Part shown: piece after piece, positions 1-773 of the stretch
Layout of the letters: each line of letters starts with the position of its first letter
How positions within the stretch are numbered: the stretch's first letter is position 1
NCBI RefSeq assembly: GCF_003334385.1
Contig: NZ_QOWN01000116.1
Reading direction: 5' to 3' (one strand)
Origin: Escherichia coli
GTDB taxonomy: Bacteria; Pseudomonadota; Gammaproteobacteria; Enterobacterales; Enterobacteriaceae
Length of the DNA: 1,326 nucleotides
Program-made: the position numbers and the translations under genes
Notes under the pieces: model-generated
Database searches by the model: none
The model's input: only the letters and a program-made list of their open reading frames with translations
Told to the model about the DNA's origin: nothing

Positions 1-773
1 GACGATGCGGCAGCCGTTTTTGAGGATTCTGCGCTGGTTTCCGACGCTTTCGCGTTCGTTTCGGATGTCTTCGCTGCGGAAGCAGACCTCGCTGCTGTGC
101 TGGCCTGTTCAGTGGCTTCGCCAGCCTTCGTTGTGGCTGTTGAAGCGGATGATGCGGCGCTTTCTGCCGATTTTCCGGCGGCGGTGGCACTGGCTGAGGC
201 CTGCCCGGCACTTGTTGACGCGGCACTGGCAGACGACGCAGCCGCTGTTTTTGAGCCTGCCGCAGCTGAGGCGCTCTGTCCCGCTGCCGTCTCAGAAGAC
301 CTGGCGTTCGTCTCGGACGTTTTTGCCGCCTTCGCGGAATTTGCTGCCGCCGTTGCCGAGGAAGCTGCGCTACTGGCGCTCGAGGATGCGTTCGTTTCTG
401 ATGATTTTGCCGCCTCTTTTGAAGCCGACGCATCCCGGGCTGAGATGGCAGCTTCTGACGCTTTCGTAGTCGCGGTGGATGCAGAAGTGGCTGCTGATTG
501 TTGTGACGCTGCAGCATTCGTTTCAGACGTTTTCGCGGCACTGGCACTGGTAGCTGCCGCGCTTTTTGAGGACTCTGCAGCGGCAGCACTTTTTAATGCT
601 TCAGTGGCCTTTGCTGATGCCGTTCCTGCGCTGGAAGACGCTGACTGAGCCGACGACGCGGCCTGTCCGGCTGACGAGCTGGCTGCGCGTGCTGAGTCTG
701 CAGCATCAGTCGCATGGGTTGCCGCCTCACGGGCAGATGTGCCGGCATCGCTGGCTGACTTCTTTGCGGCTGC
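1..773 (-). repeat. In-frame 42-nt (14-codon) tandem periodicity inside stf, encoding an Ala/Ser/Thr-rich shaft (about 18 units to the window edge)
   Basis: With the protein in 14-residue blocks from residue 133, positions 2, 6, 9 and 13 of each block are Ala in about 58 of 68 cases by my manual count (e.g. DAGTSAREAATHAT, DAADSARAASSSAG, QAASSAQSASSSAG, SAASSATAAANSAK, AAASSASAASTSAG, SAASSASTATTKAG). The motif AAK(T/S)SETN recurs at residues 203, 245, 273 and 357, spaced by multiples of 14. Confidence 0.75.

Follow-up and report, generated by a model that had tools for sequence, protein, structure and literature searches.

In this study, we report the analysis of a 1,326-nucleotide stretch of DNA from Escherichia coli (NCBI RefSeq assembly GCF_003334385.1, contig NZ_QOWN01000116.1), hereafter called the window, which carries the 5' part of stf, the side tail fibre gene of a lambdoid prophage. 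What positions 3-842 of its minus strand encode is very probably the proximal rod of this lambda-type fibre, built as a trimeric alanine/serine coiled coil. For the protein itself we observed the periodicity of the rod, its extent, its conservation, its predicted helicity and its homology to characterised proteins. The coiled-coil architecture is an ordinary, known feature: it has been in the literature with experimental support since the work of Ghosh et al. 2012 (PMC3368898) and was stated again in a 2025 study of Ur-lambda (PMC12617516). A preliminary description of the window, made from its letters alone, had asked whether such an architecture was known for the Stf family; these two papers answer that it is, and the finding is correct but ordinary.

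The stf coding sequence runs on the minus strand from window position 1145 to position 3 and off the window edge, leaving 381 residues visible by translation. The full gene (990 aa) was read in the identical locus of E. coli SCU-104 (NZ_CP053284.1), where the DNA of the window matches a prophage at 100% and stf is annotated as 'prophage tail fiber N-terminal domain-containing protein'. The annotated gene order there, J - lom - stf - tail fibre assembly gene, is that of a lambdoid prophage. Of 5426 complete E. coli genomes, 4860 contain related sequence, as do 231 phage records; the prophage gene that carries the rod is very common. A Pfam scan of full-length Stf placed PF08400 (phage_tail_N) at residues 1-134 (E = 1.3e-71) and found no family over residues 135-461.

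The heptad register begins at residue 102 (window position 842) and runs unbroken to residue 458, comprising 51 heptads and 357 residues in a single phase without stutters or stammers. Its basic unit is the seven-residue heptad S(g)-A(a)-x-x-A(d)-x-x. The composition of residues 116-381 is 38% Ala, 25% Ser and 11.5% Thr, and the three together make up 76% of the low-complexity rod region. Residue identity peaks at all multiples of 7 (z = 6.7-8.5 against composition shuffles), and the main peak of a Fourier analysis of alanine lies at 3.49 residues with a power of 7.4, compared with a maximum of 3.2 over 300 shuffles. A periodicity of 3.49 residues is the value of a left-handed coiled coil and supports the coiled-coil reading.

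The preliminary description had given the shaft a strict 14-residue period from about residue 130, with Ala at positions 2, 6, 9 and 13 in about 85% of cases. The periodicity was borne out by the autocorrelation and Fourier analyses it had proposed, and so was the count: in 14-mers from residue 133, these positions hold Ala in 60/71 cases (84.5%), the exceptions being Glu (six), Lys (four) and Gln (one), and no indel breaks the register of the 14-residue rows up to the window edge. The period of 14 as a unit did not hold, and the register starts earlier, at residue 102, and continues past the window. Identity at lag 7 (0.436) at least equals that at lag 14 (0.401), odd and even heptads do not differ in a permutation test (p = 0.18), and no super-period of 21-42 residues stands out. 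At the DNA level a signal is present at the proposed lag of 42 (z = 3.7), below that at lag 21 (z = 6.3), and 105 residues, seven times an odd number, is the most frequent of the large length differences among homologues. On these grounds the unit is seven, and a true 14-residue unit was rejected. The module AAK[TS]SETNA occurs four times at spacings that are multiples of 14, which would happen about once in eight by chance.

The four alanine positions are not equivalent either. From residue 130 onwards Ala occupies d in 36/36 heptads but a in only 25/36, and Ser occupies g in 31/36. Over all 51 heptads, d is Ala in 47 (92%; otherwise Val three times and Phe once), a is Ala in 35 (69%; otherwise Lys six times, Glu six times, and others), and g is Ser in 37, with Lys, Ala, Asn, Gln and others in the remainder. 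The core had been described as all alanine with Ser on the surface. In fact a is Lys, Glu or Gln in 31% of heptads, and Ser is fixed and conserved at g, beside the core stripe, a position that the earlier account had overlooked.

Residues 130-444 contain no Pro, and their only large hydrophobic residues are L184 and I234, both at f. The Leu, Ile, Val or Met expected at a and d of a canonical coiled coil are absent from this segment, where Ala takes the core positions; the rod behaves like a coiled coil whose core, atypically, is made of small residues. Large hydrophobics are found at its two ends. In the N-terminal cap, positions a and d include L103, F106, V110, V113 and V120, and the C-terminal end of the coil has I452, V456 and L458. 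At about 1.485 Å per residue the whole rod would measure 53 nm, its part within the window 42 nm, and the 252 residues from 130 to 381 37 nm, in agreement with the 35-40 nm first estimated for about 250 residues.

AlphaFold2 was run as a monomer on Stf residues 1-480, using a 54-sequence alignment of homologues. A continuous helical segment was predicted over residues 101-357 and another over 362-456, with a predicted local distance difference test score (pLDDT) of 85-92 over approximately residues 120-250. The N-terminus matches lambda Stf 1-94 (PDB 9e7m/9mgh) in phmmer at E = 2e-52, and the collar domain of the model superimposes on 9e7m_Ta with a template modelling (TM) score of 0.88 and 92% identity. 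The helical part of the model retrieved unrelated hairpins in a fold search, namely the chemoreceptor 2ch7 and the Ala-rich antifreeze protein 4ke2 (27% identity). The fold search is uninformative for the rod because the monomer model had folded back, and only its collar domain is informative.

The closest experimental counterpart is the low-complexity 'PCoil' region described by Ghosh et al. 2012 after the N-terminal domain of the E. coli O157 prophage fibres EPclA and EPclB (PMC3368898). Its heptad was given as Ala-x-x-Ala/Ser-x-x-Ser, scores from PCoils, Marcoil and MultiCoil were high with a trimer preferred, and PCoil lengths differed by multiples of seven. The isolated region was alpha-helical by circular dichroism with reversible melting at a Tm of 49-52°C, trimeric by size-exclusion chromatography with multi-angle laser light scattering, and by rotary shadowing a rod of about 16 nm for about 110 residues (PMC3368898). 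An EPclA-type protein in our set, P0164, is 66% identical to the present Stf over residues 1-247 and shares its heptad phase, the pattern S-A-x-x-A-x-x from residue 102 standing in the same phase in both; the landmarks SASQ (137-140) and PTVV (247-250) of P0164 match the construct boundaries of PMC3368898. EPclA and EPclB thus resemble the present Stf in their PF08400 N-terminal domain, in a coil that starts near residue 101, and in heptad and phase. The EPclA coil differs in being about 145 rather than 357 residues long and richer in Glu (13%), and it leads into a collagen triple helix, whereas the present Stf continues with PF03406 repeats and a gp37-like tip.

The second counterpart is the side fibre of Ur-lambda, whose gpStf was described as a segment of residues 1-91 followed by a linker (92-101), a proximal coiled coil (102-393), a hinge and then a distal part (PMC12617516). 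The segment 102-393 was modelled as a trimeric coiled coil with AlphaFold3, cryo-electron tomography (cryo-ET) and cryo-electron microscopy (cryo-EM); the start of the trimeric bundle was seen by cryo-EM, and extended fibres were seen in tomograms. That paper mentions neither alanine nor heptads. Lambda Stf and the present Stf belong to one family and share the domain order of collar, linker, coiled coil and hinge with PF03406, with 92% identity in the collar. They differ in that the lambda rod ends at 393 instead of about 458, the chain has 774 instead of 990 aa, and there are fewer than three PF03406 repeats. The lambda rod is known from AlphaFold3 and low-resolution density only. Helicity, trimeric state, rod shape and extended geometry have been demonstrated on these homologues, and by analogy would hold for the present rod. 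The earlier suggestion of a long, probably trimeric alpha-helical coiled coil is supported by the predicted helix, the 3.49-residue periodicity, the circular dichroism and light-scattering results on P0164-type coils and the trimeric lambda model.

Homologues were sought among 1.84 billion cluster representatives (clusters at 50% identity), yielding 1741 hits, 138 of them below 1e-30; the 54 sequences aligned for conservation extend down to about 32% identity. Across this alignment the consensus remains SAxxAxx. Position d of the rod body is Ala in 85% of cases and charged in 2%; the figures for g are 69% Ser with 8% charged, and those for a are 58% Ala with 28% charged. A single heptad phase is kept in 59/77 cluster representatives with at least 100 repeat residues, over spans of 83-428 residues. 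In an alignment that is noisy, being periodic and of low complexity, 57 of 154 gaps have a length that is a multiple of seven, against 22 expected, as in the PCoil family. The commonest gap lengths are 7, 105 and 112, and the large differences of 105 (13 cases) and 112 (8 cases) residues fall within Stf residues 110-450. Together with direct DNA repeats at 21-nt spacings, described below, these differences hint that unequal recombination produces length variants quantised in heptads.

Among the homologues, six very large proteins of 2500-4400 residues (P0196, with 4436 aa, P0206, P0207, P0220, P0225 and P0243) have 9-22 separate Ala/Ser heptad segments. By a phase tracker these segments are about 30-215 residues long; non-coil modules, each of about 150-300 residues, lie between them, resembling beads on a coiled-coil string. 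In eight other proteins (P0164, P0170, P0201, P0254, P0255, P0258, P0267 and P0268) a collagen-like Gly-X-Y run of 40-110 residues directly follows the rod. A single fibre would thereby begin as an alpha-helical trimer and continue as a collagen triple helix, an arrangement already reported by Ghosh et al. 2012 (PMC3368898).

For the present protein we infer parallel, in-register packing, the buried positions, the role of the caps and a spacer function, as follows. Three Stf chains, each emerging from one of three adjacent collar domains by way of a short linker, would wind in parallel and in register into a left-handed three-stranded coiled coil. The chains would meet along a stripe of very small residues, Ser at g, Ala at d and Ala at a, that may be likened to an 'alanine zipper', with the Ala at d nearly invariant, the Ala at a sometimes replaced by Lys, Glu or Gln, and the Ser at g flanking. 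The hydrophobic heptads at both ends would nucleate the coil and probably set its register, and the rod would be stabilised mainly by its length. Such a rod would be a thin, fairly stiff spacer, the proximal arm between collar and hinge, which keeps the hinge, and with it the distal half that binds the receptor, at a distance from the tail and whose length evolves in whole heptads.

Several points weigh against a trimeric Ala/Ser coiled coil. Sequence searches of the PDB found no atomic structure of an Stf-type rod, the matched part of Stf being residues 1-94. About 30% of heptads have a charged residue at a, where a core position would not usually carry one. Short all-Ala cores such as Lpp Ala-14 are unstable in solution according to PMC4137666, and the stability of the present rod would therefore have to come from its length and end caps. 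In the AlphaFold2 monomer the helix turns back as a hairpin at residues 358-361, with a pLDDT of 55-75 beyond residue 300, and AlphaFold3 likewise folded full-length lambda Stf back on itself, contradicting the tomograms, until the chain was split (PMC12617516).

The likeliest alternative leaves the trimeric helical rod in place and changes its core, so that Ala(d) and Ser(g), or Ala(d) alone at the axis in an x-da arrangement, would face the axis. We consider it unlikely; in its x-da variant Ser and Ala would form a ring around an axis-pointing Ala(d). As far as the letters go, several arrangements of the axis-facing pair among the stripe positions g, d and a may be compatible with the protein. 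On a 3.5-residue wheel g lies at 0°, d at 51° and a at 103°, and the invariant Ala is in the middle of the stripe; if Ala(d) and Ser(g) faced the axis, the a position, tolerant of Lys, Glu and Gln, would become a normal flanking position of e type. Positions d and g are also the least charged in the rod body of the aligned homologues, and in some homologues, such as P0163, a is mostly Glu or Gln without any change from Ala at d or from Ser at g. Against this, a is Ala far more often than g is, and the solved Ala-14 Lpp trimer packs ordinarily through a and d, as cited in PMC4137666. Large hydrophobics, which homologues place in the stripe within the N-terminal cap only, also occur there more often at d (59%) and at a (48%) than at g (39%).

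The Glu residues at a bear on the same question. Each of them has Lys or Arg three residues before it, at position e of the preceding heptad (6/6, against 1/40 for other residues at a; p = 7e-7), in the motif K-[TS]-S-E-T-N-A, which suggests that charge compensation is needed and speaks for the changed core. The pairs lie in Stf residues 204-369 (window positions about 39-536, minus strand). The coupling recurs in distant representatives, at 209/327 against 104/1495, an odds ratio of 24. The Lys(e)/Glu(a) pairs may be salt bridges that compensate a semi-buried Glu, or inherited copies of one duplicated module.

A bolder version, which we think doubtful, holds that the rod is an exceptionally long natural Ala/Ser zipper, with 45 heptads in a row lacking any large hydrophobic core residue, and not an ordinary a/d coil; the invariant Ala would be central and the packing rotated or x-da-like. 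In it Ser(g) and the coupled Lys(e)...Glu(a) pairs would replace leucines as the source of specificity and stability, and the hydrophobic end caps would set the register. If the rod were such a zipper, it would represent a distinct class of very thin trimeric rods whose length evolves in 1-nm steps.

It is very improbable that the Ala-rich helices fold back in antiparallel fashion, as an Alacoil-like hairpin or a six-helix bundle, in place of an extended parallel trimer. The break at 358-361 in our monomer model, the helical hairpins (2ch7, 4ke2) that were its best structural matches, and the folded AlphaFold3 model of lambda Stf are all in keeping with folding back. In the Ur-lambda tomograms, nevertheless, the side fibres are extended, and the folded model was rejected by the authors of that study (PMC12617516); the EPclA rod, at about 16 nm for about 110 residues, is as long as an extended helix would be, and not half as long (PMC3368898). 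The heptad phase is moreover continuous through residues 358-361, and an artefact is to be expected when an oligomeric coil is modelled as a monomer. The break is most simply explained as a fold-back artefact of modelling one chain of such a coil.

There is little more than a trace of likelihood that the periodicity is a by-product of recent 42-nt or 21-nt tandem duplication of DNA without structural selection. Short, diverged direct repeats do occur (22-39 nt, 62-88% identity, at spacings that are mostly multiples of 21 nt), as does the fourfold AAK[TS]SETNA module. Tandem Repeats Finder, however, detected no 21- or 42-nt array. Identical residues share a codon about as often as codon usage predicts (42 against 37 expected at lag 7; 33 against 32 at lag 14), and the pattern is kept in homologues down to about 32% identity. 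The periodicity is a constraint at the protein level and not a recent DNA duplication; a recent DNA tandem repeat was rejected, with no array of near-identical tandem units seen.

Hardly credible, finally, is a reading of the region as a low-complexity linker of Ala, Ser and Thr without ordered structure, or as a beta fibre with no helix, which the high share of these three residues and the lack of a Pfam family over residues 135-461 might suggest, but which the strict 3.5-residue phase over 357 residues, Pro-free across the body of the rod, the confidently predicted helix, the helicity and cooperative melting of a homologous fragment (PMC3368898) and the rigid-body behaviour of the proximal domain in cryo-EM classification (PMC12617516) all contradict.

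Small-residue coils are known from elsewhere. Crystal structures of E. coli Lpp-56 and its Ala-14 variant (PDB 1EQ7, 1JCD) show that parallel trimers can assemble around an all-Ala a/d core, and the supercoil radius of Ala-14 is tighter, at 5.1 Å against 6.1 Å (as cited in PMC4137666). The Ala-14 zipper has Ala in consecutive a and d layers, whereas Ala in the present Stf fills d almost throughout and a only in part; Lpp-56 has 56 residues and no sequence relationship to Stf, and Ala-14 is engineered.

Beyond the collar domain, the PDB searches gave two weak low-complexity hits to the Stf coil, with the coils largely unmodelled: Pseudomonas phage DEV gp53 (E = 0.15; residues 115-250, PMC11445570) and LtfA of the T5-like phage DT57C (E = 0.06; helix from T40, PMC10713586). 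Both resemble Stf in having an N-terminal attachment region, a flexible linker and then a trimeric coil, the attachment region of DEV gp53 forming a collar on the tail, and the coils of both are Ser/Ala/Glu-rich trimeric helical bundles that project radially. They depart from Stf in attachment domains and symmetry (a 15-mer collar in DEV, an LtfC-mediated lasso in DT57C) and in coils that are richer in charge. Since periodic sequences of low complexity readily match one another, homology of these coils to that of Stf is unproven.

The Stf rod is natural, about six times longer than Lpp-56, has Ser fixed at g and carries a charge at about 30% of its a positions. In aculeate (honeybee) silk, as in the Stf rod, unusually Ala-rich heptads build long fibrous coiled coils. 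Honeybee silk differs from Stf in being heterotetrameric, eukaryotic, unrelated in sequence and a material rather than a virion fibre.

How far from the tail the side fibre can carry its receptor-binding tip is set by the rod, the segment most variable in length among lambdoid prophages. In phage engineering, fusions or deletions made inside it should preserve the seven-residue phase, a point of relevance to Stf chimeras designed to retarget host range. For coiled-coil biophysics, the rod offers a natural test case for the stability of a core made of almost nothing but Ala and Ser.

Table 1. Features of the 1,326-nucleotide window
Feature	Window positions	Strand	Basis
Ala/Ser-rich rod body, residues 130-381, 36 heptads	3..758	-	column counts, lag and Fourier analysis, full-length layout, predicted helix
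N-terminal hydrophobic cap, residues 102-129, first four heptads	759..842	-	heptad layout
Linker before the rod	843..863	-	AlphaFold2 pLDDT <50 at residues 97-99, non-helical; lambda linker 92-101 (PMC12617516)
Predicted beta-sandwich collar domain StfN, Stf residues 1-94	864..1145	-	phmmer to PDB 9e7m/9mgh; AlphaFold2 model
5' part of stf (side tail fibre gene)	1..1145	-	translation; ATG 1145-1143; window edge within codon 382
Terminator-like hairpin AGCCCGCC-GGTTCA-GGCGGGCT, then TTTTTT	1152..1183	-	consensus scan; context, outside the rod
3' end of lom (Ail/Lom outer membrane beta-barrel)	1210..1326	-	translation end ...GVGYKF*; SCU-104 annotation; context

Lambda StfN binds the tail at the gpV/gpM junction, and lambda Stf is a homotrimer of which four fibres are attached per virion through a dodecameric collar, in which 12 chains make up four trimers (PMC12617516). 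The 92% identity of the collar domains suggests that the present Stf would likewise be homotrimeric and attached through such a dodecameric collar. Beyond the window, Stf residues 462-990 correspond to SCU-104 locus coordinates 3173-4760. The rod is followed there by three tandem 44-residue units (KGIVQLSSATNSTSE...), which are the three PF03406 repeats at residues 462-590, and a Collar domain is found at 761-808 (Pfam). In close relatives the distal halves are exchanged for unrelated modules, while the N-terminal domain and the rod are >90% identical.

Two open frames lie on the plus strand opposite stf, at 97-648 (183 codons) and 5-469 (154 codons). They are shadows of the Ala/Ser-rich, GC-rich stf coding frame, and nothing suggests that they are genes. 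Upstream of stf, the window holds the final 38 codons of lom, whose stop codon is at 1210-1212. The hairpin between this stop codon and the stf start (1183-1162, before its T run) has a strong 8-bp stem with GC at 7/8 pairs, and transcription entering stf would need to read through it. A 'terminator' feature is annotated beneath the matching region in phages Ayreon and mEp460.

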